DNA of 64,000 nt from Kiritimatiellia bacterium (GTDB lineage: Bacteria; Verrucomicrobiota; Kiritimatiellia; RFP12; UBA1067): NCBI GenBank assembly GCA_050949565.1, contig JBMNFY010000008.1, forward strand, positions 256,001 through 320,000, given 5' to 3'. Below, piece after piece: positions 1,955 through 63,662 of the stretch. Position numbers and translations under genes: made by a program. Under the pieces are notes generated by a model. The model saw nothing but the letters and a program-made list of their open reading frames with translations, was not told the origin of the DNA and did no database searches. Each line of letters starts with the position of its first letter. The stretch's first letter is position 1.

Positions 1955-2090
1955 GCGGTTAGGAGTTGAGCGTTCTGCGTTCGACGTTCGGCGTTCATGG
2001 GGCGCGGCGTAACCGCTACCGGGCAAGTGACACTTGCCCCTCCCGGTGCTCCGCAAACTTATTACATCTTACCTATTACTTATTACCTCC
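1955..2090. repeat. Intergenic repeat mosaic (GCGTTCN heptamers, REP-A hairpin, TATTACC heptamers)
   Basis: gcgttct gcgttcg acgttcg gcgttca; gggcaagtgacacttgcccctccc; cttattacatcttacctattacttattacct. Confidence 0.8.
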
Positions 2091-3883
2091 ATGCGCGCCA
2101 GGCTGTCAGACAGCCCGCCTTCGCGGTTGCGCAGGCGCCAGACCGCCGCATGCGCCGCCATCAGCGTCTCCTGTTCCGCCGCGAGCGACGCCTGCGTCGT
2201 GGGTGTGTCGATCGTGCCGTCCAGCAGCGCAATCCCACGGTGACACGCGGCACGCAGCAGCCGGATCACGTGACGGACCTCCTGCCCGACGACCGATGTC
2301 CGCTCCGCAGGCAGTCCGCGCTCAATACCGTCAATCGCGCCGAGGACATCCCGCAGCGTTTCTGTCGTGATCCCGGCAGGCAAGGCGCGCCCGCGCGGCT
2401 TGGCAAGCAGCAGGAACAGCTCGCTGGCGTTGCCGCGTAACGCGCCGCACCGCAAGTAGAGATCGCCCAGCCGCAGCAGCGCATCGCCATACCCCTGCGC
2501 ACCGCCGAAACGATCCATCGCCTGCGCGAGATCCAGATCCCGGTTGCGCGCGCCGCCCCACGCCAGCGCCGCGCCATACGTATAGCCGGCGAAGCTCACC
2601 GCCAGCGGCTGCCAGTGACCGCCGTCGCCCCAGTCTGTGATCAGATAGCCGCAGGCACCGTGGCGCAACCCGTTCTCGGCCGCGACCGCGAGATTCGCGC
2701 GCATGTTGGTCATGCGACCGGCCAGACTGTTCCATGACGACGTGCCGGGACACACGTAAAACGACAGCCCCGACGCAGCGAACAGCGCCCCGTGCTCGTC
2801 AAACGGATGATCGGCCTCATACCCCCACTCCAGCGCTAGCGCGTCGCGCGGCACCTCGCGCACCAGCTCAGGATGACGCATGATGATGTCGCCCCAAAAG
2901 GCCATGCGCCGCCCGCGTGCGGTGACTCGCGCGTGAATCTCCTTGAGAAAGTCCAGATACACGCGCCCCTCGCCGTGCTCACGTACTTGCGCCGCCGAAC
3001 GGCCTTCACCGCGCAAGTCGAAGGTCTCGTCGCAGCCGACATTGAACAGCCGTGAGGTGAAGTTCGGCAGCAGTTGGTCATACAGATTCTCAAGCAGGGC
3101 GAGACTGCGCGGGTCGGTCGGACAGAGCGATGTTGGCCGTTCGTGTACGCCGCCCCACGGCAGCGGCGCGCCGCCCTGCGGCAGTTCGGCCAGCGGCGCG
3201 TAACGCGGCAACGCAAGCCAGCGCTCCAGATGCCCGAACGAATTCTGATTCGGCACCAGCTCCACACACCGCTCAATGCAATAGGCATCCAACTCGCGGA
3301 TCTCCTCTGGCGTCATCGGACTCGCGTCGCGCCAGACCTCCTCGTGACCGCGATAGGCGAACGTGTGTTCGGTGTAGAGTTGAAGCTGATTGATCTTGAG
3401 CGTAGCCAGCCGATCCACAAGTTCAAACAGCGTCGCCATCGTCGGCACCTTGTCGCGACTGATGTCGAGCATCACGCCGCGCGCCTCAAAGTCCGGTGCG
3501 TCCTCAATCTCACAAACCGGCAGCGCACCACCCGACAACGCGACAAGCTGTGCCAAGGTCACGGCCGCATAAAAAAGACCCGCGCAATCCTGCGCTTCGG
3601 CTTCAACGCCTGCGGGCGTGACGCATAACCGATAGGACTGCGCCCCGGCCACATGCGGCACCAGATTAAATCGGATGCAGGCACACTCAGCGGGCGGGGA
3701 CGTCTGCGCTCCCGACTCCCGCCAGCCCGACCCCAAGGTGCGCCGGAGCACACGCGACGCAGGACGCGCGACATCCGCCGCCGCATCAACCGAGAACATG
3801 CCCGCCCCATCAACGCGCAATTCCCCCTCACCCAGAACGACCCGCCTTGGACGCGGCACCAATCTTTCTATCTGAACATGCAC
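2069..3883 (-). CDS. Glycoside hydrolase family 20 (beta-N-acetylhexosaminidase-like)
   Basis: IEDAPDFEARGVMLDISRDKVP, PNQNSFGH and catalytic GCDE. The start was moved to GTG 3883 (AGGTG upstream) because the longer ORF runs into the tRNA. Confidence 0.88.
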   Translation of the reverse strand: MHVQIERLVPRPRRVVLGEGELRVDGAGMFSVDAAADVARPASRVLRRTLGSGWRESGAQTSPPAECACIRFNLVPHVAGAQSYRLCVTPAGVEAEAQDCAGLFYAAVTLAQLVALSGGALPVCEIEDAPDFEARGVMLDISRDKVPTMATLFELVDRLATLKINQLQLYTEHTFAYRGHEEVWRDASPMTPEEIRELDAYCIERCVELVPNQNSFGHLERWLALPRYAPLAELPQGGAPLPWGGVHERPTSLCPTDPRSLALLENLYDQLLPNFTSRLFNVGCDETFDLRGEGRSAAQVREHGEGRVYLDFLKEIHARVTARGRRMAFWGDIIMRHPELVREVPRDALALEWGYEADHPFDEHGALFAASGLSFYVCPGTSSWNSLAGRMTNMRANLAVAAENGLRHGACGYLITDWGDGGHWQPLAVSFAGYTYGAALAWGGARNRDLDLAQAMDRFGGAQGYGDALLRLGDLYLRCGALRGNASELFLLLAKPRGRALPAGITTETLRDVLGAIDGIERGLPAERTSVVGQEVRHVIRLLRAACHRGIALLDGTIDTPTTQASLAAEQETLMAAHAAVWRLRNREGGLSDSLARMEVISNR

Positions 3884-3904
3884 GTTATCACCTATTTCTT
3901 CCGC

Positions 3905-3940
3905 GCAGCGGAAGGCGGCTCGTGGGGACACTCGCCCTCC
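3905..3940. repeat. REP-C hairpin copy
   Basis: cagcggaaggcggctcgtggggacactcgccctcc is nearly identical to 61763-61798. Confidence 0.8.
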
Positions 3941-4020
3941 ATTGCTTCGCTCCGACGGCTCTCGCTCTCCACTACCGCCCCCACTCATGTCAATCATGTC
4001 AGAAAAACTCAACCGGGCTA

Positions 4021-7646: not shown

Positions 7647-10116
7647 CCCATCCCAGAACAATTAGCGCGGCGCATATGCTGATGACCAGAGCGACCGGCT
7701 GCTTGGAAGTACGCAACACAACCTCGTGATCGCCAGCAGGGATGAGTGCGGCGGGCCAGATGCCATCAACGGTGTAGAGCTGCACGGGAGCGCCGTCCAC
7801 CAGAAGTTGCTGGCGGTCGCGAAGCCGCTCATCGAATACCAACAGGCCGGGAGCCTGTGCAGAAACCCGCACACGCGTCGCTAGCACTCCTGGCCGTCCG
7901 CGCGTGGTCAGCACCTCCACCTTCGCCGCACCGCCGGTCTGCCCCTCCACGCGCGGCGCATCAGAAACGGGCAGATCGGAAGTCGCCGCCGTCTCAGCAT
8001 GGCGCGCCACCGGTATGTCTCCCATCCACTCCGTAACAAAATAGGGTGCGACCACCGGCTGCACCACAGCCGCCAAGGTCAAGGTCTGTTCGCCGGGCTG
8101 TTGCACCGAGCGTACGGTCCCGGCCCCCAGTTCAAAATCCAGCAGCGGACGCAACACGCCGGCGCGGATCAGACCCTCGGCATTTTTGCGCGGCACAATC
8201 ACCGCCTGCGCATGCAGCCGCCGCCACAGCTTGAGCGCGTCCTTCTGCAGCGCGGTGAAAAGTTGGCCGTACGCGCCACTCATATCGTCTTGACTGGGCG
8301 CTAAATTGCGGATGCCGTTGAAGGCTAGCGAAGAACTGAACCATTCGTGCCCCGGCACATTCTGTGTGGCGTAGCTAACGACATTCGGCGTGCGATCACC
8401 GGCTTGCGACCTGAGCGCTTTTACCACCGCATTCTCGCGATAGAGTGGCCCCAACTCCATCGGCCGCACATAACGCCGGGCGACAGTCGCCTGATCAAGG
8501 CAGAGCAGTGCGATCAGGCACGCTGCCAGCACCCAAGGGGCGCGATCATCGCGGATGCGGTAGACCACAGCCCACAGGGCACCCGCGACCACCAGCGCCA
8601 GCCCTGCGGCACGGACGGTATTGCGCAGCGTGTAACCGCCTAGCGCATCGGCCACCTGCCCCAGTCCGAGGGCGGTGATGTGCCGAACAATCGCCGGACG
8701 GGCCGTCAGCGCCACCAACACGCCGAGCAGCAACACGCCAGCCATGCCGCACGCCAGCTTGACCAATCTGCGCCGCAACTTATCATCCTGTTCGCCGCGC
8801 AGAAACAGCTCCATGCCGAACCCCGCCAGAAACGCAGTGGCGATTTCTACCAGATGCAGGAACTTTACCGGCGCGCGGATGTAGTCCATATAGGGAAGCG
8901 CATAGAATAGGCGGTAAAGCGGCGTGTAGCGTCCCATCGCCAACAGCAGACAGACCAGCCAGACACCACACCAGAAGGGGACGTCGGAAAATTTAGGATT
9001 TAGGAAGGAGGATTTAGGAGTTGGGAGTTGGGAGTTGGGAGTTTTGTTTTCTGGGGAGGGACGAGCGTCTGCTCGTCCGGGACGGGAGAAAGCCGCGAAG
9101 ATCGCAAAGAGCAGCGGGATGAGACCAAGATAGACGGTATGTTGCCGGTAGTTGGGCATCATGCGGCCCTTTTGGAACAGGCTGTCGTGGGGGCGTCCAA
9201 GGCGCCCCCAGTAGGGATACGGCGGCTGCGCGGAGTCGTTGCCGAAGACACCGGGCACAAGGAACTCCAGAACGTCCTCGGGCGGCAGGCTCCAATTCGT
9301 CGCGAACAGCCAGCGTTCGCGCCGTTCGGCGGCACTTTTTTCGGGCATGTCTGCGGTACTCTCCTCGGACGACGACCGACCGCTTGCCCCGGCGATCTGC
9401 GCATCGCGGTTGGCAATCTGCGTGGTCACCGCCGACCGAACACCGGCAAAACCGGCCAGCACAAGTATGACGAGCGAGATCGCAAAACGCGGCCAGATGG
9501 TGAGGATTTTGGATTTTAGATTTTGGATTTTAGATTTGGAGAACGTCAGCCAGAGCACATAGGCGGCGGCCAGCGCACCGACAAGCAGCAAGACATCGGG
9601 CTGATACGACACGCCCCATGCGAGAACCAGTCCCAGCAAGGCAAACGGAGTCAATCGCCGTGTCGCGAATCCGCTGGCGATCAGGCCAAAGGCCCAGATC
9701 GCGCAAGAGAACATGTGAAAGTACCCGCGATGTCCAGCACTGAAAAGTGTGAAGGTGTAACCGCAGAAGCCGAGCGCCAAACCGCCGAACCATGCAGACA
9801 GCGGGTGCAGGCGTTGCGTGTGCAGATAGTAGACCGCGCCGAGTGTCAGCACCAAGGTGTCAATGATGTAGGTCAGTTCGTGTGCGTAAAGCGGGTGCAG
9901 AATCAACCAGTACAGGTTATGCGGTGAAAAAGTTCCGCCAGCCAACAGATTCTCAATGTGTGGCGTCCGCCACGGCCACGCGAAAAATGGCATCGAGTCC
10001 GGCGCGACCAGCCCGGCGTATTTGGGCAACACCGGAAGAAAGACGATCAACATGCCAATTGCAAAGATGCAAAGGCAATACAACGTGCAACGCCATTTTT
10101 GAACATAATCGGCCAT
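7615..10116 (-). CDS. YfhO-like polytopic membrane protein (GT-C-like) carrying in-frame repeat insertions
   Basis: Many TM segments; WSLPPEDVLEFLVPGVFG, YWGR, YLG, RAPVKF motifs; C-terminal IPAGDHEVVL. Confidence 0.7.
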   Translation of the reverse strand: MADYVQKWRCTLYCLCIFAIGMLIVFLPVLPKYAGLVAPDSMPFFAWPWRTPHIENLLAGGTFSPHNLYWLILHPLYAHELTYIIDTLVLTLGAVYYLHTQRLHPLSAWFGGLALGFCGYTFTLFSAGHRGYFHMFSCAIWAFGLIASGFATRRLTPFALLGLVLAWGVSYQPDVLLLVGALAAAYVLWLTFSKSKIQNLKSKILTIWPRFAISLVILVLAGFAGVRSAVTTQIANRDAQIAGASGRSSSEESTADMPEKSAAERRERWLFATNWSLPPEDVLEFLVPGVFGNDSAQPPYPYWGRLGRPHDSLFQKGRMMPNYRQHTVYLGLIPLLFAIFAAFSRPGRADARPSPENKTPNSQLPTPKSSFLNPKFSDVPFWCGVWLVCLLLAMGRYTPLYRLFYALPYMDYIRAPVKFLHLVEIATAFLAGFGMELFLRGEQDDKLRRRLVKLACGMAGVLLLGVLVALTARPAIVRHITALGLGQVADALGGYTLRNTVRAAGLALVVAGALWAVVYRIRDDRAPWVLAACLIALLCLDQATVARRYVRPMELGPLYRENAVVKALRSQAGDRTPNVVSYATQNVPGHEWFSSSLAFNGIRNLAPSQDDMSGAYGQLFTALQKDALKLWRRLHAQAVIVPRKNAEGLIRAGVLRPLLDFELGAGTVRSVQQPGEQTLTLAAVVQPVVAPYFVTEWMGDIPVARHAETAATSDLPVSDAPRVEGQTGGAAKVEVLTTRGRPGVLATRVRVSAQAPGLLVFDERLRDRQQLLVDGAPVQLYTVDGIWPAALIPAGDHEVVLRTSKQPVALVISICAALIVLGWASSVRRRPVG
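8990..9082. repeat. Heptamer array plus REP-A hairpin inside the YfhO-like CDS
   Basis: ttaggat/ttgggag repeats followed by gggagggacgagcgtctgctcgtcc. Confidence 0.85.
9504..9540. repeat. GGATTTT/AGATTTT heptamer array inside the YfhO-like CDS
   Basis: ggattttggattttagattttggattttagatttgga. Confidence 0.85.
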
Positions 10117-10123
10117 CTTCAAC

Positions 10124-10340
10124 CTTTGGTTTCTGGTTTCAGGGTTTCGGGGGTTCAGGTTTCATCCTAATCTGGATCGTTTGTTGCGACCACGCAGTGG
10201 CTCGCAACGACGAGGGTAAAAGCGGCGGCGTGACCGCCGCCGGACGAGCAGACGCTCGTCCCTCCCGTCTTTTGACTGGGCTCGCAAGGCGCTTCACACG
10301 TCAAAACTCCTAAATCCTAAATCCCAAATCCTAAATTCAA
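10124..10340. repeat. Intergenic repeat mosaic (GGTTTCA octamers, REP-D, GGCGGCGTGACCGCCGCC hairpin, REP-A, AAATCCT heptamers)
   Basis: Each module recurs elsewhere in the window (e.g. 17932, 22435, 18092, 16038). Confidence 0.85.
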
Positions 10341-10378
10341 AATGCGTCTGCCCCACCGTCGCGTCTTTTGCCAGACGA

Positions 10379-11216: not shown

Positions 11217-11274
11217 CTTTTTACTCCTCCCTGCCCAAACAACCAACGCGAGCAGTTCCCGCAACCCAACTCAA

Positions 11275-11582
11275 TCTCACACAAAGGCCACGAAGGCCAC
11301 AAAGTTTTCCGTCTTTGTGCGCCACCCAGATGCCGCTCCTCCAACTCTTGTCATCGGGCTTGCGAAGCGCAGGGAGGGGCAAGCGTCTGCTTGCCCGCGG
11401 ACGAGCGACGCTCGTCCCTCCCGATGCTCTGCGAGAAAACCCGAAACCTATTCCTAACCATAAAACACATGAAACTTCATGAAAACCAGAGCCCCTCTTG
11501 ACGTTCTCGGCGCCTTGGCGGTTCCAAAAATCCGAGCAGTGCCAAAACAAACTAATGCACTAATGAACTCATGCACTAACGA
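11275..11582. repeat. Intergenic repeat mosaic (nonamer arrays, inverted REP-A doublet, ACTAATG octamers)
   Basis: cacaaaggccacgaaggccacaaag; gggaggggcaagcgtctgcttgcccgcggacgagcgacgctcgtccctccc; actaatgcactaatgaactcatgcactaa. Confidence 0.85.
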
Positions 11583-13741
11583 ATATCCTGTCCAAAGATG
11601 CGCATCATGCGCGTACGCAGATCGCCCTCCGTCTCCATCGGAATATCGGCTCCGCCCGTCAGCGTCACGAGATCGGACAGAATGTTGAGCGCTTCATCGA
11701 GCACCACATCATCTTCCTTACCCTCTTTCGAGGCGTCCTGTACATCGTCCTGCAACTTACGCATTTCGTTTTCAGCTTTCATGAGCTTGCGGCGAGCGTT
11801 GATCTCCAGCGGAACTTCTTTCCGCTCATTGACCTCCTGCACATGCCGGACCAGCGTGCAGTAGCGCACGTAGCGGGCATTGTCCGCCAAGCGCTTGGCG
11901 GACTGCTCTTTCAACTGCGGCACGAACTTCGAGACATCGGCGACGGGGATGTAAAGCGCCTGTTCAATCTGGGTCCACGGCAACGAACCCGGCAGTTTGT
12001 CTTCGCCGATGTCGAGTCCGTCCAATGTCGAGGGAATCACGATGTCCGCGCCCACGCCCTTACGCTGCGTGGAAGCGCCGTTGATGCGGTAGAAACTCGC
12101 GGTCGTCACCTTCATCGAACCGAACTTCTCCGATCCGAGCGGCATCACAGTCTGCACCGTGCCTTTGCCGTGCGACTGCGTATCGCCCACCAGCACAGCG
12201 CGTCCGTAGTCCTGCAACGCGCCGGCCACGATTTCTGAGGCCGAAGCCGAGGCACGGTTGATCAGCACGAGCATCGGCTTGCGGAAGGCCATCGCCGGAT
12301 CCATGTTGGGCACCGGCAGCACGACGATCTGTCGCGCCTCACGCACCTGCACGACCGGTCCGCTGCGCACAAACAGGCCGGTCAGGCTGACCGCCTCGCG
12401 CAACGAACCGCCGCCGTTATCGCGCAGATCAAGAATCAGCCCCGAAACATTCTCGCTGTTGAACGCGGCCAGCCGCTTGGCCACGTCGACAGTCGCACTG
12501 CGGAAGCCGGGCTGATTCGGGCGCTTGTCCATGGTGCCGTAAAAGGTCGGCAGCTTGACGACGCCCAGCTTGCGCACGGTGCCATCCGGCAACGTCACGC
12601 GCGCCACATGGCCGGTTGCGGCCTGCTCTTCCAACTTGACCTCGTCGCGGATAAGATCGACGATCTTGGTCGAGGTGCCGGAAGGGTCGGAGGCCGGGAT
12701 CACGCTCAACACCACCTTGGTGCCCTTCTCACCGCGGATTTTACGCACCGCTTTATTGAGCGGCAAGTGGACGATGTCCTCGATGGCGCCATCGCCCTGC
12801 CCCACGCCGATAATCTTGTCACCCTTGGTCAGCCGGATGGCGCGTTTATCGCGATCGGCGGGACCGCCCGGGATCACCTCCATGATCATCGCAGTTCCGT
12901 CCTCTGAGCGGAGCTGCGCACCGATACCGCAGAGCGAGAGGTTCATGTCGATGTCGAAATCCTCTTTGCGCATCGGCGACATGTAGTCGGAGTGGGGATC
13001 GTACGCCATCGCCACGGCACTGAGGTAGCGTTGCAAAATCGCCTCTTCATCCATGTCCTGAATGACGATCATGAACTGCTTATAGCGTTTGGCGACATTC
13101 TCCTGCGGCGTCAACACAGGCGGCGTGTTGGTCACCGTGCCGCCTGTCGCGGCATCGGGCGTGTCATTCGTCACGGCAGCAGCGGTGTTGGTTACTGCGG
13201 CGCGATCCAGTTCGCGGCTGATAAGCTGCGCCAGCACTTCGTTTTTGATGCGCTTGCGCCACAACTCATCCTGTTCCTCCTGTGTCGCCGGCCAAGGCGC
13301 GTCCTTACGTTTCCAGGTGTACGTCTCGTCTTCGGTGAACGTAAAACCGGTTTCAAGCAGGTTGGTCACATAGGCATAACGGTCTTCAAGCCGCGCGCGG
13401 AACACGCGGTAGACCTCAAACGGAAACGAGACATCCCCCGCCTTAACGGCATCGTCGATGCGCGTCTGCATGTTTGTGAACGCGGCGATATCGCTCTGTA
13501 AAAAGTAGCTACGGTCGAAATCGAACGCGGTGATCAGATTGGTCCACGCCTTTTGCGAAATCTCGTCGCCCAGCGGATATTGCAACAGGTGCGCAGCCGG
13601 CAACACGCGCGCCACCTTCTGCGCCACATCACCATAATGAGGTTGCGGCACCGGCTGCCCGTTGCCCCTGTCCGCCGCCCATATGGCGATCATCGGCGCG
13701 AGCGCCACCATCAAAAACATCCCTGCTCGCCGATTCATCAT
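11576..13741 (-). CDS. prc: Carboxy-terminal processing (tail-specific) protease, S41A
   Basis: Signal peptide, DPHSDYMSP, PDZ domain GIGAQL, LDLRDNGGGSL, SASASEIVAGALQDYGRA, GKGTVQ. Confidence 0.92.
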   Translation of the reverse strand: MMNRRAGMFLMVALAPMIAIWAADRGNGQPVPQPHYGDVAQKVARVLPAAHLLQYPLGDEISQKAWTNLITAFDFDRSYFLQSDIAAFTNMQTRIDDAVKAGDVSFPFEVYRVFRARLEDRYAYVTNLLETGFTFTEDETYTWKRKDAPWPATQEEQDELWRKRIKNEVLAQLISRELDRAAVTNTAAAVTNDTPDAATGGTVTNTPPVLTPQENVAKRYKQFMIVIQDMDEEAILQRYLSAVAMAYDPHSDYMSPMRKEDFDIDMNLSLCGIGAQLRSEDGTAMIMEVIPGGPADRDKRAIRLTKGDKIIGVGQGDGAIEDIVHLPLNKAVRKIRGEKGTKVVLSVIPASDPSGTSTKIVDLIRDEVKLEEQAATGHVARVTLPDGTVRKLGVVKLPTFYGTMDKRPNQPGFRSATVDVAKRLAAFNSENVSGLILDLRDNGGGSLREAVSLTGLFVRSGPVVQVREARQIVVLPVPNMDPAMAFRKPMLVLINRASASASEIVAGALQDYGRAVLVGDTQSHGKGTVQTVMPLGSEKFGSMKVTTASFYRINGASTQRKGVGADIVIPSTLDGLDIGEDKLPGSLPWTQIEQALYIPVADVSKFVPQLKEQSAKRLADNARYVRYCTLVRHVQEVNERKEVPLEINARRKLMKAENEMRKLQDDVQDASKEGKEDDVVLDEALNILSDLVTLTGGADIPMETEGDLRTRMMRIFGQDIR

Positions 13742-14530: not shown

Positions 14531-14562
14531 GAAGGAGAAGTTAGGATTTAGGATTTAGGAGT
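14531..14562. repeat. Left arm of the inverted heptamer array flanking the IS
   Basis: GAAGGAGAAGTTAGGATTTAGGATTTAGGAGT matches the reverse complement of 16038-16069 at 29/32. Confidence 0.85.
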
Positions 14563-14569: not shown

Positions 14570-16026
14570 CACGGTCCGTCAAATAGAAAAGACACCGTAG
14601 GTTTTTTTGAGGCGGTGACGATCCGTCAAATACTGGACACCGAGGGGGTCAAGGGACGAGGGGCTGGTCAACGGCGTGAAGGGTGGCCGAGTTCCGCGCC
14701 CTGTCCCGCCGGTATTCCGGCGGGACAGGGCGCGGAACCCGGGGTGGTCATCCCTTGCGCTTCGCGTTTGGCGAGCTTGTTCTGCTTGCGCAGGATCAGC
14801 GCGTATCGGCGGCGGATGTCCTCAAGGAGGCGGATCGGATTGGTCTTTTCGCGGAGCGCGGTAAGACGCCGGATCACGGCGGGGTCCGCGTATCCCGACG
14901 CAATCACCCTGTCGAGGGGCGTGGCGGGCTTGTCGTAACGCTTGGAGAAGCCGTGCGAGTCCGGCCTTTTGGTTTTGGAGATGAGCCGCTTGCAGGGGCG
15001 GAAGAGGTTGTTGTACAGCGATATCTTCGCGCACAGGACGTCCATGTCCTTCTTGAGCTCGATGCGGTCGATGCGCTCGTAGCCGAAATACTCGCGGACG
15101 ACGGAGGCGTTCTTCTGCTCCACGCGGGCGTTGTCGTTCTTGTTCCCGGGGCGGGAACGGGTGAAGGCGAGGGGGCGGGGGCGGTCCCGCGCGTAGCCGA
15201 GCACGTGGGCGTTGAGGAACTCCAGCCCGCTGTCCGAGTGCATGGCCGTGAGCGGGAACGGGAACGCGGCCTCGGCGTCGGCGAGGCCTTCCTTGGTCGC
15301 GGCCGCGCCGCGGTTCCAGACGCAGCGCAGCTCCGTCCACTGCGTCAGGCGGTCCGTGAGCGTGAGGATCCAGAAGAAGTTGCCGCTCATGTCGCCCCCG
15401 CAGAGCGCGACCGTGTCGACCTGCGTGTCGCCGGGGGCGGCGGGCGGCAGCGCCTCGCCCGGGACGCAGGGGACGCTCGACGCCAGCGCGTTCGCCCCGC
15501 TGCGGCGGTTGCGGCGGCGCGGGGCCTCGCGCGGGTGCTTGCGGAGGATGCGCTCCATCGTCGACGCGCTCATGCGCAGAACCTGCGCCGCGGCCGCCTC
15601 GTCGACATGCTCGAGCTCGCGCAGCGCGGCCATCTGGCGGCCCGTCACGGTCACAAGGTACTGGGGCGTCATGCGTCCCGAGGCGCGCCAGAGACGCAGG
15701 AACAGGGCTTCCGCCCCGGGCGTGTACGTCTTCCCGCGCCCGGCGTGATCGCGGTACTTCCGGTTGCCGGTCAGCAGCCGGATGGCGTATTTGCGCTCGG
15801 CCCCCGTGACCTGGCAGAAGTCGTCGATCGCGGCACTCTTGGCCTTCTTGCTCTTCAGTTTTGAATAGGCGCGACGCTTCGCGCCGACGTATTCCATCGT
15901 GGCTTTCCGTGACATCTCGTTTCTCATGCGAGCCGATTCTAGCACGGTGTCCAGTATTTGACGGATGCGCTTGATTTCCGGACACCGCGATTTTGGCTAC
16001 GGTGTCCATGACTATGACATACCGCG
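14570..16026 (-). mobile_element. Complete 1457-bp insertion sequence (DDE/rve transposase; ISNCY, possibly ISLbi1-like)
   Basis: 5-bp direct repeat TCTTG at 14565-14569 and 16027-16031. Imperfect ~30-bp terminal IRs C(A/G)CGGT..GTCA...GACACCGTAG. Perfect inner 22-bp IR ATCCGTCAAATACTGGACACCG at 14621-14642 and 15945-15966. The family assignment is from memory. Confidence 0.9.
14668..15927 (-). CDS. DDE-type integrase/transposase
   Basis: N-terminal HTH (IDDFCQVTGAERKYAIRLL); VDTVALCG, HSDSGLEF, RSRPGNKNDNARVEQKN catalytic core. Confidence 0.92.
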   Translation of the reverse strand: MRNEMSRKATMEYVGAKRRAYSKLKSKKAKSAAIDDFCQVTGAERKYAIRLLTGNRKYRDHAGRGKTYTPGAEALFLRLWRASGRMTPQYLVTVTGRQMAALRELEHVDEAAAAQVLRMSASTMERILRKHPREAPRRRNRRSGANALASSVPCVPGEALPPAAPGDTQVDTVALCGGDMSGNFFWILTLTDRLTQWTELRCVWNRGAAATKEGLADAEAAFPFPLTAMHSDSGLEFLNAHVLGYARDRPRPLAFTRSRPGNKNDNARVEQKNASVVREYFGYERIDRIELKKDMDVLCAKISLYNNLFRPCKRLISKTKRPDSHGFSKRYDKPATPLDRVIASGYADPAVIRRLTALREKTNPIRLLEDIRRRYALILRKQNKLAKREAQGMTTPGSAPCPAGIPAGQGAELGHPSRR

Positions 16027-16037
16027 TCTTGTCCTCA

Positions 16038-16069
16038 ACTCCTAAATCCTAATTCCTAAATCCTCCTTC
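16038..16069. repeat. Right arm of the inverted heptamer array flanking the IS
   Basis: ACTCCTAAATCCTAATTCCTAAATCCTCCTTC. Confidence 0.85.
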
Positions 16070-17902: not shown

Positions 17903-18175
17903 AAGAGCAAGTTGAACTTTCAACGCTCTTGGGTTTCAGACTTCAAGGTTTCATGGTTTCATCCAAATCGGGATCGGGATCGCTATCGGGATCGATTGTT
18001 TAACCACAGAGGACACAGAGATCACAGAGGTTTTGAGGGAGCCAACTCTGGCTTTATCCGCAACGCGGACGGAAGCCGGTGTTCACAAAGTGGCGGCGTG
18101 ACCGCCGCTCGGACAAGCAGACGCTTGCCCCTCCCGTCCCTACTTGAACGTTGAGCGTTGAACGTTGAGCGTTTG
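17896..18175. repeat. Intergenic repeat mosaic between aspS and the R-M gene
   Basis: AAGAGC-GTTGAA hairpin, GGTTTCA octamers, ATCGGG hexamers, CACAGAG nonamers, REP-A, ACGTTGA/GCGTTGA heptamers; 17942-18007 is identical to rc 29332-29397. Confidence 0.9.
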
Positions 18176-18357: not shown

Positions 18358-21300
18358 ATGGCGACACTTTCTGACATCCGTGTGCATGAAGTCGAGTTCT
18401 GCGCCGATATCAAATCTGCGGCTGACGCTCTCTTTGCCGCGCATCCCGAATGGCCGTTCTCGCACGCCAAAATTGAACAGCGTGGCGTGGGCAATAATAA
18501 ACGCAACGACCTGCGCATCTTCCGCAAAGGTCATAAAGCCCCGCTGCTTTCCGGTGAAGTCAAGATGCCGGGAACCCCTGAAGGCCGTTCGCCCTATAAT
18601 CCGGCCCTTATGAACGATGCGGCATCAAAGGCGGATAACGCCGGCAGTGCCTACTTCTTCACTTGGAACGTCAACCAGTTCGTGCTGTTTGACCGCAGCA
18701 AGTTCAATCTTCCGATCATCGAACGCCGATGCCATGACTGGGACCTCGGTCTCCAACTGCGGCGTTCCGCCGATTGCAGCCGTCCCGAAGTGATGTCTGC
18801 CATCACGACCCGTTTCTTGCCGGAACTCTTTGCATTGCTGGCCCGCATCGTCACGGAGGACTTCACCGAATGGGGCATGCCCCCGGATGAGCTTTTCATC
18901 CGCTCCCTCGAAAGTCATCTTGCCTGGCCCATCATGGGCACCAGCGATTATCTGGAAGCCACATGCCGTACCGACAAAGCCTTTTCCGCAAAGCTCCAGG
19001 CGTGGATGGCCGGCGACATGTCGTGGACCTTCGACCCGGACAATCCCGACAACTGGCGGCAGACTCTCGACCGTGCCGCCAGCACGCTCTGCTATGTTTT
19101 CTGCAACCGCGCTATATTCTACGAAGCCATCCGCGCGCGTTACCCAGACAACCTTGCGCCGCTCACCATGCCGACCGGCAAACGCGGCCACGAAGGTATC
19201 TACGAGTGGTTCCGCATCCAGTTTCTTCACGCCGTCAACGAGAGCGGCGATTACGAGCCCATCTTTTATCCTGATGTTGCCGACAAAGTCGGTTCGCTCG
19301 TTTTCGCAGACCCCATGGCCCGCCAGGGCTGGCGTGGCGTTTTCGAGAACTTGGCCCACTACAATTTCCGGGACATCCCTTACGACATTATCGGCGGTAT
19401 CTTCCAGCGGCTTATTGCTCCCGAGGAACGCCAGAAATTCGGACAGTTTTTCACCGGTGAAGACATCGTCGATATCATCAACTCTTTCTGCATCCACCGT
19501 GCCGCCGACAAGGTTCTCGATCCCGCATGCGGTTCTGGCAGCTTTCTAATTCGTGCCTACCATCGCAAGGCTTGGTTGAGCGCACGACGACACGCGCGTC
19601 AGCGGAATGCGGATTCTCACCTGACACATCAGGAGCTACTGGCTGACATCTACGGTTGCGACATCGCCCTCTTCGCGGCTCATCTGGCCACGCTCAACCT
19701 TGCCGCCCGCCAGATCAACGACGAGGAGAACTACCCCTACATCGCCCGCAGCAACTTCTTTGAAGTCATTGAAAACCGCGACGCCTTCTACCGCGTTCCC
19801 GCCGGCCTGCGCAATCCAGACGGCACACGGGATTACAAGGACGTTCCGCTCCCCAACATGGACGCCATCATCGGCAATCCTCCCTATATCCGTCAGGAAG
19901 CCATCGCGAAGCGTGCGGGACTCAAGCGCCGCCGAGACGAAACGAAAGCCGCCTTCGAATCCCGCGCCAAAAATACCAAGGAACATTTCCAGGAACTTGT
20001 TGCCAGACTTTGGCCCGGTCTCAAAATGAGCGGGCGCAGTGACCTTCATTGCTACTTCTGGCCGGTCGCCGCCTCTCTGCTCAATGATGGCGGCTACTTT
20101 GGCTTCCTGACCTCGTCGAGCTGGCTGGACGTTGAATACGGGTTCGCCCTCCAGCGCTGGTGCCTGCAAAATTTCAAGGTCGTTGCCATCATGGAAAGTC
20201 TGGACGAGCCTTGGTTCCCCGATGCACGCGTCAAAACCGCCATCACGATCCTTCAGCGCACCGACGACCCCGCCGCCCGCGATAGCAACCTCGTCCGTTT
20301 TGTACGTTTCTCAAAACCGGTTACTGAAGTGCTTGGCGAACGGAACAGCACCGACGAATCGGCCCGCCAGTCCGCCGCTGACCGCCTGCGCAAACTCATC
20401 CTTGGCACCGCCGGCCCGAAGCAGAACGAGCCCCTTGCCGTCCACACCACCGCTCAGCTTCGCATCATCACCCTGCGCCAGTCCGACCTTTGGCAGGAAG
20501 GTGTCCGCGCTTGGGACATCCTTAAGAAAGGGACGGACGCTACGGAGTCGCCATTAGAAGAAGACGAAACGACGGAAGAAACACTTGAAGAGGAAGCCGA
20601 AGAGACCGCCTCAACTGACGACACATTTACGAGGGTCTTGCAAAACCCCTTGCCTACAGGTGTGGCACGGGCATCTTGCCCGTGTTTCATGGGCGGGACG
20701 CCCATGCCACAAGGGGGGTTGCAAGCGCCTCTTACGCTCGGCGCTGCCGCGCCCGACTATGCCGCCGGAAAATGGGGCCGTTTTCTGCGCGCCCCCGACA
20801 TCTACTTCAAGCTGATCCACGACTACAGGGACCGCTTTGTCCGTCTCGGCGAGATTGCTGATGTTCGCTTTGGTATCAAAAGCGGCTGTGACGCCTTTTT
20901 CATGCCGCGTGACGTGACCGACGAGATTCTCGCACGTGTTGAGAAGGGCGTCCTTTGGAACGACATCGGTCTGATAACCCATTGTAGCCGTCGCGATGTC
21001 GAAAACGGTAAGGTCCGCATCATTTGTGCCGGCGACAAAACCATCCATCCCATTGAAGCGGAGTTCATCCGTCCCGAAGTCCACAGTCTCATGGAAGTCG
21101 ACCGGCCGATCGTCCGCACCGCCGACTGTAAGCGCGTGGTTCTCTGGGTCAATCAGGAACTTAAGGACATCGCCGATACCTACGCCGCCAAATACATCCG
21201 CTGGGGCGCCAAGCAAACCTTTACCTCGAAGAAATCCAAACCCGTCAAAGTTCCAGAGCGTTCAACATGTGCCGCGCGGGAGCGTTGGTATGATATTACG

Positions 21301-23170: not shown

Positions 23171-23218
23171 CCCTGTGGCACTAGGAGGTGTTTAGATGAC
23201 CCAGAGAACAGTTTGTTC

Positions 23219-29440: not shown

Positions 29441-29463
29441 GCCGTCGCGCCGGCGCGGAGGCT

Positions 29464-45856: not shown

Positions 45857-45957
45857 GAGGTTCTTGCGAAACCCTTTGCTTGCAGGCGTGGCACGGGCAT
45901 CTTGCCCGTGTTTCATGGGCGGGACGCCCATGCCACGAGGGGTTTTGCAGAACCCCT
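45857..45957 (+). mobile_element. 101-bp MITE copy
   Basis: GAGGTTCTTGCGAAACCCTT...AGGGGTTTTGCAGAACCCCT enclosing the identical REP-B doublet; no clear TSD. Confidence 0.85.
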
Positions 45958-46359: not shown

Positions 46360-46425
46360 CGGAAACGCTCAACGTTCAACGTTCAACGCCCAAGTTATAC
46401 GGCTCGCGGAGACGCTCGCCCGAGC
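46360..46425. repeat. AACGTTC heptamers plus REP-C variant
   Basis: aacgctcaacgttcaacgttcaacgcccaagttata; ggctcgcggagacgctcgccc. Confidence 0.8.
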
Positions 46426-48339: not shown

Positions 48340-48610
48340 GACGGGCAAATGAACTTGAAAGTTGAGCGTTGAACGTTGAGCGTTCATCGGGAATCCGGCG
48401 CGGTCAGTGCGCGGAGTCACAGCCCCGAAGAGGCGGCCTTACCCTTGCGAAGCGCCGACGGACGAGCGCCCCCACGAGCCGCACTTAGTCGCAACACGTC
48501 GTCGTTTACACCTAGTCCAAACACTTTGTCGCTAGCGCAATCGACTAGGTGTAGCGACTAAGCGTAACCGACTAAGTGTGTGGGACTGAGTGTGGGGGAC
48601 TAAGCGTTCT
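48340..48610. repeat. Repeat mosaic including an inverted 13-14-mer array (CACTTAGTCG x4 / CGACTAAGTG x5)
   Basis: Units at 48482, 48495, 48509, 48522 and inverted units at 48542, 48555, 48569, 48583, 48597; GCGTTGA heptamers at 48355. Confidence 0.85.
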
Positions 48611-48627
48611 CGCGCGTTGCGCGGAAG

Positions 48628-49637: not shown

Positions 49638-49710
49638 CCCTCCTAAATCCTAACTCCTAAATCCTACTTACTAACTCCGGCGCAGCCGGTTAGAGGCGTA
49701 GCCGGTTAGA
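49638..49710. repeat. TTAGGAT/TTAGGAG heptamers plus a 16-bp tandem duplication
   Basis: ctcctaaatcctaactcctaaatccta; ggcg(c/t)agccggttaga x2 at 49679 and 49695. Confidence 0.8.
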
Positions 49711-50867: not shown

Positions 50868-51058
50868 GGGGAGGCTCTTGCAAAACCCCTAGTGGCATGG
50901 GCGTCTCGCCCATGAAACACGGGCAAGATGCCCGTGCCACATTACGTTAAAACCTAAACCATGAACTACACAAAATCAGTGCTGTGCCTTTTCGTGTATT
51001 CCGTATGTTTCGTAGTAAACAAACCTCGCCCCTGCCCCCCAAAAAACCTTAGCGCCTC
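50868..51058. repeat. Partial MITE (one TIR + REP-B doublet) plus nonamer modules
   Basis: gaggctcttgcaaaacccct followed by gtggcatgggcgtctcgcccatgaaacacgggcaagatgcccgtgccac; 50978-51020 resembles rc 22595-22637. Confidence 0.8.
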
Positions 51059-61529: not shown

Positions 61530-62118
61530 GCTAAGGATGCGCCAGCATCCTTAGCCAAGGAGGATTTAGGAGTTAGGATTTAGGAGTTTTCGACTTCAGA
61601 GTTCAGAGTTCAGAGTTCGACGTTCAGCGTTCAGAGTTAAAAAACTTTTAACGCCCAACGCCCAACTTTCAACGCTCAAATGGGCGGCGCATGCGCCGCC
61701 GGGCAAGCAGACGCTTGCCCCTCCCGGCGCTCCGCAATGAAACCTGAAACCATCCTTCCGTACAGCGGAAGGCGACTCGTGGGGACACTCGCCCTCCCAA
61801 TCAGGTCAGTCGGGTCAATCAGGTCAAAAATGAAACCATGGAACACGGGCAAGATGCCCGTGCCACACCCTTTTGCAAGGCACATTGTTGCGGGCGAGGA
61901 CGCCCGCGCTCCCGACTCTTTGCTCCCCTTTTCACCAGAAACGCATGATCCTTCGCACATCCCTATCACTACCGATTACGGCTGGATTGAACATTGAACG
62001 TTGAGCGTTTTTGCCTATACTACACGAAGTTTTTTGGAGCACTGCTCGGGTGTTTCACGCGAAGGCGCAAAGACGCGAAGGCTGGAGGGCGAGAGTCCCG
62101 CGAGCCGCCTTCCGCTAT
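61529..62118. repeat. Large repeat mosaic (at least 12 modules) upstream of the accessory Calx-beta gene
   Basis: 12-bp-stem palindrome 61529-61556, TTAGGAG, GAGTTCA and AACGCCC heptamers, REP-A, two REP-C, REP-B, TCAGGTCAA and CGCGAAG nonamers, and a 63-bp block shared with 43199-43260. Confidence 0.9.
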
Positions 62119-62164
62119 AGAGCAAAAGAGAACGGAACCGACACAACTCGAAGGAGCACGTGAA

Positions 62165-63508
62165 ATGAAAGCCAATGCGACGTATTTCATCCGGATTTTT
62201 TTCATGGCCATCGCAGGGACGGTGTTCGCGTTGCAGGCGGATGCCGCGCCCGACGTCTGGAGCCTGGAGGTCGTGAACAAATGGGCGCAGGCGCAGAGGA
62301 CTAGCGTCGGCAAAATCATCCGTGCCGTGCAGGGATGGAACGGCCGCCTGTATTCGGGTTTTGGCGACTACAATGCCAACACCGGGCCGATAACGCTAGC
62401 GGGATACGATCCCGTGACGAAAACATTTGACGAACCATTCGTCTTCACGACGGAGGCCGTGTACTATTTCACGCCGATTTTTGGACGCCTCTATGTGCCT
62501 CCGATCGATCCCAGCACGCATTCCGGCGTGGCCGTTCTTGATTACTCCAAAGGCTGGCAGTTCAAGAGCGTATATATGGAACACTGTTATGGCATTACAA
62601 CATTTAACGGCAAGGATTTGTGGATCGTGGGCTCTGGCGGCGACCATCTCTCGCATGCAAAACGCTCTGTTGACGACGGCAACACGTGGACGCTCGGATA
62701 TCAGGAAGTGTACCTCGACGACGACTACAGCCGCTTCTATTTTGTCGGCACGGTTGGCGGGAAAATGTATTTACAGAGCAGCTCGTCCGGCGCATGCAGT
62801 TCGTATGACGGCACGACATGGACAACGAACAGCTACGGCATCGGGCAGTACGGCAGCAAAACTTCCAGTTTTGCGGGGGTCATGGTTTTGAAGATCAATA
62901 ACTACCTCCATTCCTTCAATGGCACTGGTGCTCCCACGGCGGTGTCGCAAAACTACGTATGTGATTACGTGATTTCCGATGGGGCACTGTATACGCTGGG
63001 GTACGATAGAACGGTGATGCGCACAACCAACTTGCAGAATTGGACGACGTTGAGCACGAACGCTCCGTCGGATGCACATAGCATCGGCGTTCTGGGGCGC
63101 AAACTTTACGTCGGCACGAGAGTGGGCACGATGTGGACCTACAGCGAACCGCTCGACGCTAAACCGCCCGTATGGGTGGTTCCCGACGTGGACCGGACGA
63201 CCGAGGGCTCATCGTTCCCAGGCGTGTTCCGCATCAAGCGCGGCGGCGACCTCTCGCAACCGCTGACGGTGACCTACACGTTCTCAGGCGACGCAGAAAA
63301 CGGAGTGGATTTTGTGCAGCGTCCGCTCTCCGCCACAATCCCCGCCGGCGAGGCCTCCGTGACCGTCGAAATCTTGTCGTTGCGCGACGGGCTCGTCGAG
63401 GGGGACGAGCATGTGAACCTCGTCCTTGACGAAGGCACCGCCGCGTTCGCGGCCGAGTGCCCGCGCGACGCGCGCGTCATGATCGGCAACCAAGGGACAG
63501 GTATTTAG
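62165..63508 (+). CDS. Secreted beta-propeller-like protein with a C-terminal Calx-beta domain
   Basis: Signal peptide after GAAGGAG RBS; Asp-box SVDDGNTW; LTVTYTFSGDAENGVDF...TIPAGEAS...DGLVEGDE. Confidence 0.75.
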   Translation: MKANATYFIRIFFMAIAGTVFALQADAAPDVWSLEVVNKWAQAQRTSVGKIIRAVQGWNGRLYSGFGDYNANTGPITLAGYDPVTKTFDEPFVFTTEAVYYFTPIFGRLYVPPIDPSTHSGVAVLDYSKGWQFKSVYMEHCYGITTFNGKDLWIVGSGGDHLSHAKRSVDDGNTWTLGYQEVYLDDDYSRFYFVGTVGGKMYLQSSSSGACSSYDGTTWTTNSYGIGQYGSKTSSFAGVMVLKINNYLHSFNGTGAPTAVSQNYVCDYVISDGALYTLGYDRTVMRTTNLQNWTTLSTNAPSDAHSIGVLGRKLYVGTRVGTMWTYSEPLDAKPPVWVVPDVDRTTEGSSFPGVFRIKRGGDLSQPLTVTYTFSGDAENGVDFVQRPLSATIPAGEASVTVEILSLRDGLVEGDEHVNLVLDEGTAAFAAECPRDARVMIGNQGTGI

Positions 63509-63662
63509 ACGATTCACGTGTATCGGGCTCAAGCCCTACAACAAGGGGCGGGTGGCACCGTATTTCAAGGGGCTGAAGAAACTTGGATCTTAAGGATTTG
63601 GGATTTGAGATTTGCGCTCAACGCCGAAGCATGAAACCTTGAAACCAGTAACCTGAAACCAA
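63492..63662. repeat. Repeat mosaic starting with AAGGGACAGGTATTTAGAC
   Basis: 19-bp identity to 22668-22686; GGATTTG heptamers; TGAAACC octamers. Confidence 0.8.

Follow-up and report, generated by a model that had tools for sequence, protein, structure and literature searches.

Intergenic repeat islands in a Kiritimatiellia genome: probable accumulations of several independent small element families

We analyzed a window of 64,000 nucleotides (C8:256001-320000) from the PVC-group genome of an uncultured digester bacterium (Kiritimatiellia), the assembly of which is 92% complete. Between the genes of the window, 3641 of the 6287 intergenic bases (58%) have at least 5 other copies in the genome, versus 3.3% of the coding bases, intergenic bases being defined by our own gene map, which, like our module library, is a crude construction. 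Such multi-copy DNA was present in 20 of the 22 gaps of at least 60 nt, in agreement with a preliminary description in which most long intergenic regions were chains of repeat parts. The features are as follows, with the strand where one was assigned.

1970..2088: island between convergent genes; (GCGTTCG)n heptamer array 1970-1996, degenerate GC hairpin and REP-A variant 2021-2044 with GGTGCTCCGCAA tail, (TATTACC)n array 2060-2088
3898..4001: REP-C 3917-3940 and CTTCCGCGCAGCGGAAG hairpin, then CATGTCAAT word pair
8988..9078: heptamer arrays TTAGGAT / GGAGTTG, then minus-strand REP-A 9054-9078; forms, as the left arm, an inverted pair with 10224-10343
9504..9537: (GGATTTT)n heptamer array within the 9100-10122 open-frame region, putatively coding or intergenic; alignments of relatives break at 9536/9537
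10124..10343: octamer (GGTTTCAG)n, REP-D 10184-10207, GC hairpin and REP-A 10224-10266, (TCCTAAA)n 10303-10343
11271..11583: nonamer array (CACAAAGGC), head-to-head REP-A doublet 11372-11422 (REPIN-like), CATGAAAC word block, octamer/16-mer array (ACTAATGC)
14541..14562, plus strand: left arm (TTAGGAT)n of a heptamer-array hairpin
14572..16026, minus strand: IS of 1455 bp in the heptamer-hairpin loop, target-site duplication (TSD) TCTTG
16033..16066, plus strand: right arm (TCCTAAA)n, inverse of 14541-14562
17903..18173: hairpin like the joined TIRs of the 283-nt MITE, then octamer/hexamer/nonamer composite 17942-18030 (found again, inverted, at 29310-29408), GC hairpin and REP-A 18092-18135, (TTGAACG)n array
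20631..20731, plus strand: 101-nt TIR-MITE with REP-B/b doublet, TSD TTAC
22360..23171: largest island; Z motif, heptamers, (CGCAAGT)n, REP-D 22437-22460, octamer (CGCAGAGG)n, a 138-nt block (Z, half REP-B, GC hairpin, REP-A) twice (22659-22796, 22902-23039) with heptamer hairpin 22800-22885 between the copies, then REP-C 23067-23090 and (CCTATTA) array
29159..29441: 283-nt TIR-MITE, TIR CCTAAAAAGAGCAGTTGA, with near-perfect nonamer-array hairpin and hexamer and octamer arrays
40404..40540: REP-D 40409-40431, (CCCGCGA / GCGACTT) heptamers, (CAAATCA)n array
41993..42092, minus strand: second full ~100-nt REP-B MITE, TGTTA at both ends
43106..43289: heptamer hairpin (TTCAGNG)n-GTTAAAAAC-(AACGCTC)n, then a ~100-nt module with 30-46 genome copies
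45857..45956, plus strand: third REP-B MITE copy, degenerate TIRs
46364..46393, plus strand: (AACGCTC)n heptamer array, from TRF
48355..48625: (GTTGAGC)n heptamer array and 14-mer (GACTAAGTGT..) arrays
49639..49678: (TCCTAAA)n array, read from the sequence; AGGAGG, its end on the minus strand, precedes the start codon of gene 48628-49632 by 6 nt
50870..51050: truncated REP-B MITE (one TIR and b/B doublet, 50870-50941), CACGGAA-type word block
61557..61993: island, 93% multi-copy; (AGGAGTT / AGGATTT)n, heptamer hairpin 61595-61682, GC hairpin and REP-A 61683-61725, REP-C 61774-61797, nonamer (CAATCAGGT)n, REP-B half 61844-61866, two further multi-copy modules, (TTGAACG)n
63594..63660: (GGATTTG)n and (TGAAACC)n arrays

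The repeats and nearly all motif counts of the preliminary description were reproduced. With its own search pattern, REP-A occurs nine times in the window (8 exact copies and 1 at up to 2 mismatches), REP-B seven times, all exact, and REP-D three times, as counted before, and TRF recovered every named heptamer family; these and the octamer, hexamer and nonamer arrays all lie where they had been placed. REP-C, put at about six, occurs only three times at up to 2 mismatches, 2 of these copies being exact. The modules are also over-represented genome-wide, as that description supposed, and are restricted to intergenic DNA. At up to 2 mismatches the genome holds 363 copies of REP-A, 269 of REP-B, 163 of REP-C and 173 of REP-D, and the REP-A core has 277 exact copies versus 0 for the pattern read backwards. 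TRF rows of periods 7, 8 and 9 on contig C17 numbered 392, 321 and 559, versus 54, 75 and 72 in a third-order Markov shuffle.

REP/REPIN-type GC hairpins form one separate class of island parts. Four families are found beside RAYT-like Y1 transposase genes at other genome locations: REP-B/b doublets on C10, REP-D on C20, T on C8 and C4, and Z on C17 flank such genes. The Y1 proteins score 32.6-57.7 bits against the NCBIfam RAYT cut-off of 80, two of them also under the Pfam cut-off. REP-A forms 104 head-to-head, REPIN-like doublets, which take in 208 of its 390 genome copies; the doublet at 11372-11422 is predicted to fold at -38.7 kcal/mol (z -4.15). The GGCGGCG..CGCCGCC hairpin, said to stand usually before REP-A, does so at 5 of 9 copies in the window but at only 70 of 390 genome-wide. 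As had been stated, the window is free of Y1_Tnp, TIGR02436 and TIGR04256 (0 matches within C8:256001-320000). The genome search for RAYT, four-helix-bundle (4HB) and GxxExxY genes, with a test of their flanks, connected four REP families and the word arrays with such genes, but found no cognate gene for REP-A (390 copies) or REP-C (163 copies) in the 92% complete assembly; ORFs with REP-A copies on either side proved to be ordinary genes or to lack a family match.

A second class consists of IS-derived TIR-MITEs with TSDs. The ~100-nt REP-B MITE is the left end of an IS5/IS1182-family IS of 1.65 kb, which has the same TIRs in 11 copies and an ORF that matches Pfam DDE_Tnp_1 above the cut-off and the IS1182/IS5 models below theirs. 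An exact 4-bp TSD was found in 29 of 50 MITE copies. The copy at 20631..20731 is predicted to fold at -67.5 kcal/mol (z -8.0), and together with its TSD (105 nt) it is in frame and stop-free within an Eco57I/MmeI-like methylase ORF (18274-22359). Opposite the copy at 41993..42092, the related genomes G005, G003 and G001 have an empty site with a single TGTTA, and G002 keeps the copy. Half of REP-B is common to this MITE and a separate composite (Z, B, hairpin, REP-A). The 283-nt MITE has 29 near-full genome copies, with an exact 5-bp TSD in 12 of 26 two-TIR copies (chance expectation 0.025); no parent IS was found for it. Its inner nonamer-array hairpin (copy 29159..29441) folds at z -9.6. Several of the supposed modules are parts of longer elements, an example being the octamer, hexamer and nonamer arrays within this MITE.

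Tandem arrays of 6-9-nt words, often paired as imperfect hairpins, make up the third class. At 15 of 15 4HB/GxxExxY genes of the genome (9 of 9 TIGR02436 and 6 of 6 TIGR04256), inverted flank matches exceed the 95th percentile of 150 control ORFs, and these matches consist of tandem words. The abundant window words AACTCCT/AAATCCT (~210 arrays), AACGCAG/AACGTTC (~120), ACGCAGAG (~225) and CACGGAACA (~116) each also flank one such gene. The genes all lie outside the window, and the window arrays are gene-less arms; the heptamer hairpin 43106..43289 folds at z -3.0. No transposition hallmark (TSD, exact-boundary empty site) was obtained for the word arrays themselves.

The fourth class is an active IS. 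The window IS has 8 full-length genome copies and one shorter, 96% identical, and its ORF gives a weak IS481/IS3-like DDE match. Of the nine copies listed, only two are in hairpin loops, namely the one in the window and another whose hairpin is REP-D-like; two more adjoin repeat modules and the others are in unrelated DNA. Nested insertions were seen with the window IS in the loop of its heptamer-array hairpin, with an IS5/IS1182-like IS within a TCCTAAA tract, and with MITE copies within heptamer tracts.

The modules had been described as shuffled, in a different order at each locus, but their adjacency is strongly non-random. Only 465 distinct bigrams were found among 1905, versus 1229 +/- 15 in 200 shuffles, and the ten commonest account for 33%, versus 5.6% when shuffled. 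Many spacings are near-invariant (interquartile range near 0), such as the B-b gap of 3 (n=179) and the A-/A+ gap of 20 (n=104).

We then compared the islands with those of relatives, which are fragmentary MAGs, 56-89% complete, with contigs that often end inside repeats. The islands proved to differ between same-genus genomes by clean empty sites, module swaps and array-length changes, as the preliminary description had anticipated. At the site of 1970..2088, G005 is repeat-free, G004 and G002 have an array of CATGAAAC type, and G001 and G003 have REP-A only. The block 3898..4001 is absent from the orthologous site in G002 (7-nt gap versus 104 nt in the window), and 40404..40540 is absent in G001, G003 and G005 (gaps of 20-34 nt versus about 190-204 nt). 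In G002 the array at 8988..9078 is 42 nt longer and has other units, and the REP-D, hairpin and REP-A of 10124..10343 are replaced by another module between conserved flanks. At the site of 11271..11583, G002 and G004 bear a different nonamer array in the same scaffold (53-nt gap versus 309 nt). The heptamer arms around the window IS are kept in G004 with a different filling of ~240 nt; G005 has neither arms nor IS. Also missing from G005 is the 17.9-23.2 kb stretch, aspS and ackA being 30 nt apart there. In place of the island 61557..61993, gene 61994-63508 and the next island together, G003 has 126 nt and G002 has 366 nt. The REP-B MITE 45857..45956 is also found in G004 (contig C317, 99% identity). 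In a same-genus comparison, a GxxExxY gene replaces an aldolase gene between conserved CATGAAAC arms. Across genera, REP-A and TCCTAAA arrays are distributed independently: G009 combines 25 REP-A cores with 0 TCCTAAA-type matches, and in G020 the figures are 0 for REP-A and 111 for TCCTAAA-type matches.

BIMEs are the REP mosaics of enterobacteria and pseudomonads. Classical BIMEs are not known to hold MITEs or tandem word arrays, whereas the hairpins here are interleaved with both. Cyanobacterial STRR offer a further comparison for intergenic heptamer repeats. Compared with REP/REPIN and RAYT systems, as excerpts of two papers present them (PMC3116915, PMC3337134), the hairpins share GC-rich extragenic palindromes in hundreds of copies, intergenic clusters, head-to-head doublets and Y1 genes with their own REP family at the flanks; they differ in that one PVC-group genome has several REP families and several RAYT-like genes, in that the Y1 proteins, which score under the family cut-off, are distant, and in that the most abundant family, REP-A, is without a gene found. 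The MITEs resemble IS-derived TIR-MITEs, in the excerpted account (PMC4596501), in their TIRs, 4- or 5-bp TSDs, lack of coding capacity, tens to ~100 copies, same-ended parent IS and empty sites in relatives. That account includes a tandem-repeat-bearing example, a Porphyromonas MITE with a minisatellite; the MITEs here differ in that the ~100-nt one is built on a REPIN-like doublet, the hairpins of which also flank a RAYT-like gene, and in that the one of 283 nt contains word-array hairpins belonging to the GxxExxY-linked class. In the ORF-bearing 23S rRNA IVS of Coxiella burnetii (S23p; PMC4990558, excerpt), as here, a small four-helix-bundle-family gene lies in the loop of an inverted-flank stem, but our cassettes lie between protein genes, their arms are tandem 6-9-nt words, and the window has arms without genes. 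The intergenic TAACTGA heptamer direct repeats of Beggiatoaceae, Cyanobacteria and Bacteroidetes (PMC4679880, excerpt) share 2-6-copy arrays, hundreds per genome, an intergenic position and a patchy phylogenetic distribution; here there are many word families rather than one, the periods span 6-9 nt, inverted pairing is frequent, and the vocabulary is shared with the arms of 4HB/GxxExxY genes.

How are these islands to be understood? The preliminary description favored one system, which would be an integrated combinatorial machinery that deliberately recombines modules as mutual landing pads and homology handles. The co-occurrence of modules in the same islands, the shared REP-B half, the insertions inside other repeats and the cassette replaced between conserved arms are consistent with it. 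However, the families differ in hallmarks (4-bp TSD, 5-bp TSD, no TSD or TIR) and in cognate genes (DDE transposase, RAYT-like Y1, 4HB/GxxExxY). Their cross-genus distributions also differ, partly shown by the families present singly in G009 and G020, adjacency is restricted rather than combinatorial, and the nine listed IS copies lie in hairpin loops (2), against modules (2) or in unrelated DNA (the rest). We consider a single machinery very improbable. What holds of the earlier interpretation is a community of non-autonomous elements, non-coding, multi-copy, lineage-restricted chains that are gained and lost between same-genus genomes. Landing pads and handles hold in part: insertions do land inside other repeats, and the GxxExxY-for-aldolase swap hints at handles, but the landing preference could be passive, junk DNA alone tolerating insertions.

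It is also rather unlikely that the modules are mainly selected cis-acting elements, with mobility secondary, serving for example as mRNA 3'-end stabilisers, RNase III or protein-binding sites, or translation signals (the AGGAG-containing heptamers). Their orientation relative to flanking genes is biased (REP-C 17 same/93 anti, AACGCTC 39/5, AACGCAG 29/3), which could mean function and not junk, but the tandem copies in these counts are not independent of one another, and replication direction is a confounder. The predicted hairpins are strong (z -3 to -9.6), although one heptamer hairpin folds better on the non-transcribed strand. The TCCTAAA array that ends in AGGAGG ahead of a start codon fits a cis role, as do the intergenic heptamers before Beggiatoaceae start codons, proposed as regulator sites in the excerpted report (PMC4679880). 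Nonetheless, neither terminator-like sites (21 vs 17.5 +/- 4.9) nor promoter-like sites (8 vs 4.3 +/- 2.3) are enriched, and the same housekeeping genes in same-genus genomes adjoin other modules or none. An assembly artefact, that is, chimeric joins of repeats, would fit the short-read contigs from three public DNA runs (3 studies), which stop at each island, so that read-level proof of the junctions was not obtained, and the related MAG contigs, which often end at islands too. We regard it as extremely unlikely, because independent assemblies of relatives show the same arms and modules at orthologous places (arms in G004; islands in G002 and G004), contig C289 of G002 runs through the 42.0- and 43.1-kb islands at 98% identity, the elements bear matching TSDs, and unique stretches are identical in the public runs.

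Taken together, the islands are probably accumulations of several independent small non-coding element families, not one system. The mosaics may have arisen by nested transposition into a few insertion-tolerant places and by copying of already assembled composites, and such copying of whole composites would explain the fixed spacings; local duplication, array slippage and recombination at shared modules may have added to them. Each class would be driven in trans by its own gene, the REP hairpins by Y1 transposases, the MITEs by DDE transposases and the word arrays perhaps by 4HB/GxxExxY proteins. The small repeats of this genome come from three or more unrelated sorts of mobile or selfish DNA, which crowd together and nest at shared permissive sites.

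The intergenic islands of this stretch are best read as a real, very repeat-rich mosaic of several co-resident families, in which most of the parts belong to known kinds and tandem arrays of 6-9-nt words are the unusual part. The window corresponds to C8:256001-320000 of the source genome (4.66 Mb in 21 contigs, 60% G+C), whose nearest relatives by aspS are uncultured MAGs of the PVC group, filed under Verrucomicrobia, Lentisphaerae and Kiritimatiellae; at least 93% of the words sampled from an 8.5-kb stretch were found in 14 public runs, which stem from 13 bioreactor, digester and wastewater studies. The gene content of the window is ordinary, with housekeeping and carbohydrate genes, and a search of the window with Rfam at the gathering threshold returned two tRNAs only. 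Across the genome, 15-mers present at least six times cover 5.3% of the sequence. By our own gene map, which consists of crude calls with repeats set as barriers, 3641 of the 6287 intergenic bases of the window (58%) had at least five other copies, as did 3.3% of the coding bases, and multi-copy DNA was present in 20 of the 22 intergenic regions of at least 60 nt. Two further families outside the window, with about 80 copies each and units of 23 and 29 nt, resemble CRISPR repeats.

The preliminary description had reported nine copies of REP-A, seven of REP-B and three of REP-D, and its own patterns recovered nine (eight of them exact), seven and three, respectively; about six REP-C copies had been claimed and only three were found. 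All of the heptamer, octamer, hexamer and nonamer arrays that it named were recovered by TRF. The GGCGGCG hairpin said usually to precede REP-A does so at five of nine copies in the window, but genome-wide the figure is just 70 of 390. The expected genome-wide over-representation of the modules was borne out, with 163-363 copies per REP family at no more than two mismatches; the ranges of genome counts were 363-390 for REP-A, 269-279 for REP-B and 103-173 for REP-D, and REP-C had 163 copies. The 16-nt core of REP-A matched the genome 277 times, whereas the same pattern reversed did not match at all. On contig C17, TRF found 392, 321 and 559 arrays of period 7, 8 and 9, compared with 54, 75 and 72 in a third-order Markov shuffle, and the dominant words were AAATCCT (123), AACTCCT (74), ACGCAGAG (145) and AACACACGG (71).

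REP and REPIN elements with their RAYT genes, and MITEs, are known kinds of repeat. The REP families of this genome are short, GC-rich, extragenic, many-copy imperfect palindromes, and they form the inverted doublets typical of REPINs (104 head-to-head REP-A pairs and 179 pairs of REP-B with its partner hairpin b). The REP-A doublets are predicted to fold as a single structure. Two Y1 transposase-like genes are flanked by REP-B/b or by REP-D:

Y1 transposase-like genes and the hairpins that flank them
C10:220516-221001, Y1 transposase-like gene, flanked by REP-B/b doublets
C20:21986-22858, Y1 transposase-like gene, flanked by REP-D

Other Y1-like genes are flanked by hairpin families T and Z, of which Z occurs in the window and T does not. 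The RAYT model NF047646 was the best NCBIfam match for all four Y1 proteins tested, at 32.6-57.7 bits, which is below its cut-off of 80, and five of the seven genomic places exceeded the cut-off of the Pfam model Y1_Tnp. No cognate gene was found for REP-A or REP-C in this assembly, which is 92% complete; the ORFs between their copies were ordinary genes or matched no family. As had been stated, the window itself contains no match to Y1_Tnp, to the four-helix-bundle (4HB) model TIGR02436 or to the GxxExxY model TIGR04256.

REP-B also makes up the core of a roughly 100-nt element with terminal inverted repeats (TIRs) GAGG[GC]TCTTGCAAAACCCC. An exact 4-bp target-site duplication (TSD) was present in 29 of the 50 copies having both TIRs, where about 0.2 would be expected by chance. 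Eleven elements of about 1.65 kb end in these TIRs as well; their ORF matches DDE_Tnp_1 with IS1182 and IS5 as the best models, and their left end holds the TIR, a b/B doublet and an inner copy of the TIR. The MITE of about 100 nt is this left-end stretch of the insertion sequence (IS). In the same-genus MAGs G001, G003 and G005 the site of the copy at 41993-42092 is cleanly empty and holds one TGTTA only. Another copy, at 20631-20731 (101 nt), makes up together with its 4-bp duplication 35 stop-free codons within the ORF at 18274-22359, an Eco57I/MmeI-like methylase, and resembles the in-frame insertions of palindromic elements that are known from Rickettsia. The window also holds a second, longer MITE:

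Second MITE of the window
29159-29441, MITE of 283 nt with TIR CCTAAAAAGAGCAGTTGA, 29 near-full copies

An exact, AT-rich 5-bp TSD was found in 12 of its 26 two-TIR copies (0.025 expected by chance), and many of these copies are placed in heptamer tracts. Its contents are the composite of octamer, hexamer and nonamer that had been described as separate modules, and its inner nonamer hairpin also occurs alone about 120 times. No element of 0.5-3 kb with its TIRs, and no parent IS, was found in the genome. The ends of this MITE resemble a bidirectional terminator (A-run, stem, T-run), and a hairpin at 17903-17940, directly after the aspS stop codon, looks like its two TIRs joined. A further IS of 1455 bp is present in eight full-length copies and one shorter copy, 96% identical, and its transposase is a weak IS481/IS3-like match.

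The modules had been described as shuffled from locus to locus, which they are not. We annotated 66 frequent module families genome-wide, which gave 1251 islands and 1905 adjacencies, and found 465 oriented adjacency types compared with 1229 ± 15 under random reassignment; the ten commonest types made up 33% of the adjacencies, against 5.6% when shuffled. The spacing within several pairs was invariant: 3 nt between B and b (n = 179), 20 nt between head-to-head REP-A copies (n = 104), 48 nt from REP-A to REP-C (n = 60) and 4 nt from the octamer array to the hexamer array (n = 40). Much of the apparent modularity thus comes from longer composites that were copied whole. Nonetheless, 465 adjacency types are still real diversity, and single parts, such as one REP-B hairpin, were found in more than one composite. 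By definition, a BIME consists of REPs in alternating orientation, connected through a few defined linker motifs. Some module pairs here are similar in their fixed spacing and alternating orientation, but the islands differ from that definition in that they also contain MITEs and tandem arrays.

The word arrays often pair as hairpins in which each unit has one mismatch. The fold z-scores of heptamer hairpins, taking either strand, lay between -2.4 and -4.2, and that of the nonamer hairpin reached -9.6. In the window, inverted word arms lie around the IS (14541/16033) and around 9.0-10.3 kb, and short-loop word hairpins lie at 22800, 43106 and 61595. Elsewhere in the genome, all nine TIGR02436 genes and all six TIGR04256 genes had flanks whose inverted matches exceeded the 95th percentile of 150 control ORFs, and in these 15 genes the matches are tandem words. 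Every abundant word family of the window is found beside one of them:

Word families flanking 4HB and GxxExxY genes
C17:395446, 4HB gene, flanked by AACTCCT/AAATCCT and AACGTTC words
C8:62233, 4HB gene, flanked by AACGCAG words
C15:17355, GxxExxY gene, flanked by ACGCAGAG words
C17:1382786, GxxExxY gene, flanked by CACGGAACA words
C17:565156, GxxExxY gene, flanked by CATGAAAC words, the fifth abundant family

An IVS-type cassette, with a gene inside the element, was not found in the window, which has neither a 4HB nor a GxxExxY gene and holds only gene-less arrays from word families that flank such genes elsewhere. For CATGAAAC, TRF found no array in the window, and one single block is visible at 11462-11486. 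A (GGATTTT)n array at 9504-9537 lies in the middle of an open frame without a family match (9100-10122), which may be two genes or contain the array in frame; the alignments of relatives break there.

Two loci outside the window bear on how the genes and the words are related. At locus L154 (C17:563000-567500 of the source genome, 2124-2510 within it), the GxxExxY gene replaces an HpaI/GarL-type aldolase gene of G004, G002 and G005. The same CATGAAAC arms flank the aldolase gene of G004, the GxxExxY ORF ends in the surviving last codons of the aldolase gene, and the upstream arm has grown to five units of 45 nt. At one operon junction, the source genome has a 4HB cassette (L152, C17:393000-402000, 6040-6660 within it), whereas G001 has a truncated GxxExxY cassette (L155) of 84 aa, with arms unlike those of the source genome and an N-terminus read from its array. 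Based on the swap between the CATGAAAC arms and on the different cassettes at one orthologous junction, it is possible, if rather doubtful, that the word arrays are non-autonomous satellites of 4HB and GxxExxY cassettes, with the proteins acting on their own words and orphan arms serving as recombination handles for gene swapping. The accessible parts of the literature on GxxExxY, heptanucleotide repeats and S23p/IVS yielded no description linking word arrays to GxxExxY or 4HB genes. ORF-bearing IVS elements with inverted flanks are described in 23S rRNA (PMC4990558) and intergenic heptamer repeats in other phyla (PMC4679880).

The islands are not invariant within the genus: the same-genus genomes, all of them incomplete MAGs, differ at many orthologous sites. 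In the gap between a NERD gene and aspS, G005 has about 100 nt free of arrays, G004 shares the inverted (TTAGGAT)n arms of the source genome around a different filling of about 240 nt, and the source genome has the 1455-bp IS in the loop, with the TSD TCTTG. The distance from aspS to ackA is 30 nt in G005 and 5.3 kb in the source genome, where it is made up of two islands and a restriction-modification-type gene; the whole of 17903-23210 is absent in G005. At 1902-2089 the source genome has REP-A and two heptamer arrays, G001 and G003 have REP-A only, G002 and G004 have a CATGAAAC array, and G005 has nothing. REP-C at 3898-4001 is absent in G002, and the island at 40402-40541 is absent in G001, G003 and G005. 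Replacements were also seen: the scaffold at 11.2-11.5 kb bears a different nonamer array in G002 and G004, and in G002 the heptamer array at 8990-9045 has other units and an extra 42 nt, and the REP-D, hairpin and REP-A at 10.18-10.27 kb give way to another module. Finally, in place of 61530-63694, which holds a gene at 61994-63508 (weak Calx-beta match) and both of its islands, G003 has 126 nt and G002 has 366 nt. The loci around aspS in more distant relatives are almost without these repeats.

Contigs of three DNA runs covered the unique stretches without differences, but stopped at every island. The many apparent joints in public-run contigs, with sides measuring 20-45 nt, in all likelihood stem from other repeat copies, so that they are uninformative on variants or spanning reads. 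In three metagenome runs the contigs of 17.98-22.43 kb reached about half to three quarters of the depth of the aspS and ackA contigs on either side, which hints weakly at presence/absence polymorphism. The architecture of the islands is supported by the independent assemblies of the relatives.

The suggestion that all of these repeats form one system did not hold, as the families differ in hallmarks, partner genes and distribution. The REP-A core was present in all six genomes of the genus and, in other genera, 25 times in G009, 14 times in G016 and 10 times in G018, and was absent from G020. TCCTAAA-type arrays, whose pattern reads the same backwards so that a reversed control is void for their counts, were also present in all six genomes of the genus, numbered 111 in G020 and none in G009, and were found in none of the 16 genomes of other families that were searched. 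Most sister genera have neither, and this patchy distribution suggests transfer or repeated loss. An SD/anti-SD role of the TCCTAAA-type arrays was set aside because their orientation relative to start codons is mixed.

The elements had further been proposed to use each other as landing pads, and insertions within other repeats are indeed documented: the IS of the window is located in the loop of an array hairpin and another copy in the loop of a REP-D-like hairpin, one IS5/IS1182-like element lies inside a TCCTAAA tract, and one MITE lies inside a T repeat. Five of the listed copies of the window IS are located elsewhere, the MITE of about 100 nt has no clear target preference, and active targeting explains the insertions no better than passive accumulation at harmless sites, which accounts for them equally well. 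A cis-acting role of the modules is retained as an alternative that does not exclude the reading as several families. Some families are strongly oriented with respect to neighbouring genes, but scans with consensus terminators and promoters gave no enrichment, and orthologous sites do without the modules.

Reading the islands as a mosaic of several families assigns to each abundant repeat class a candidate driver gene from its own genome, and turns the modular picture into testable pairs: a Y1 gene and a REP family, an IS and a MITE, a 4HB or GxxExxY gene and a word family. The last of these, if true, would add a third pair of master and satellite to RAYT/REP and IS/MITE, and the link between word arrays and small genes is relevant to two very large gene families that lack an explanation. 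Accessory genes turn over at the islands, as with the restriction-modification-type gene and the Calx-beta gene, and the breaks that the islands cause in short-read assemblies are of consequence for the quality of MAGs. Taken together, these data indicate that small selfish DNA of three unrelated kinds, nested in one another, can make up about 5% of a compact bacterial genome, and they provide a worked example for the PVC group, in which such repeats are little studied.
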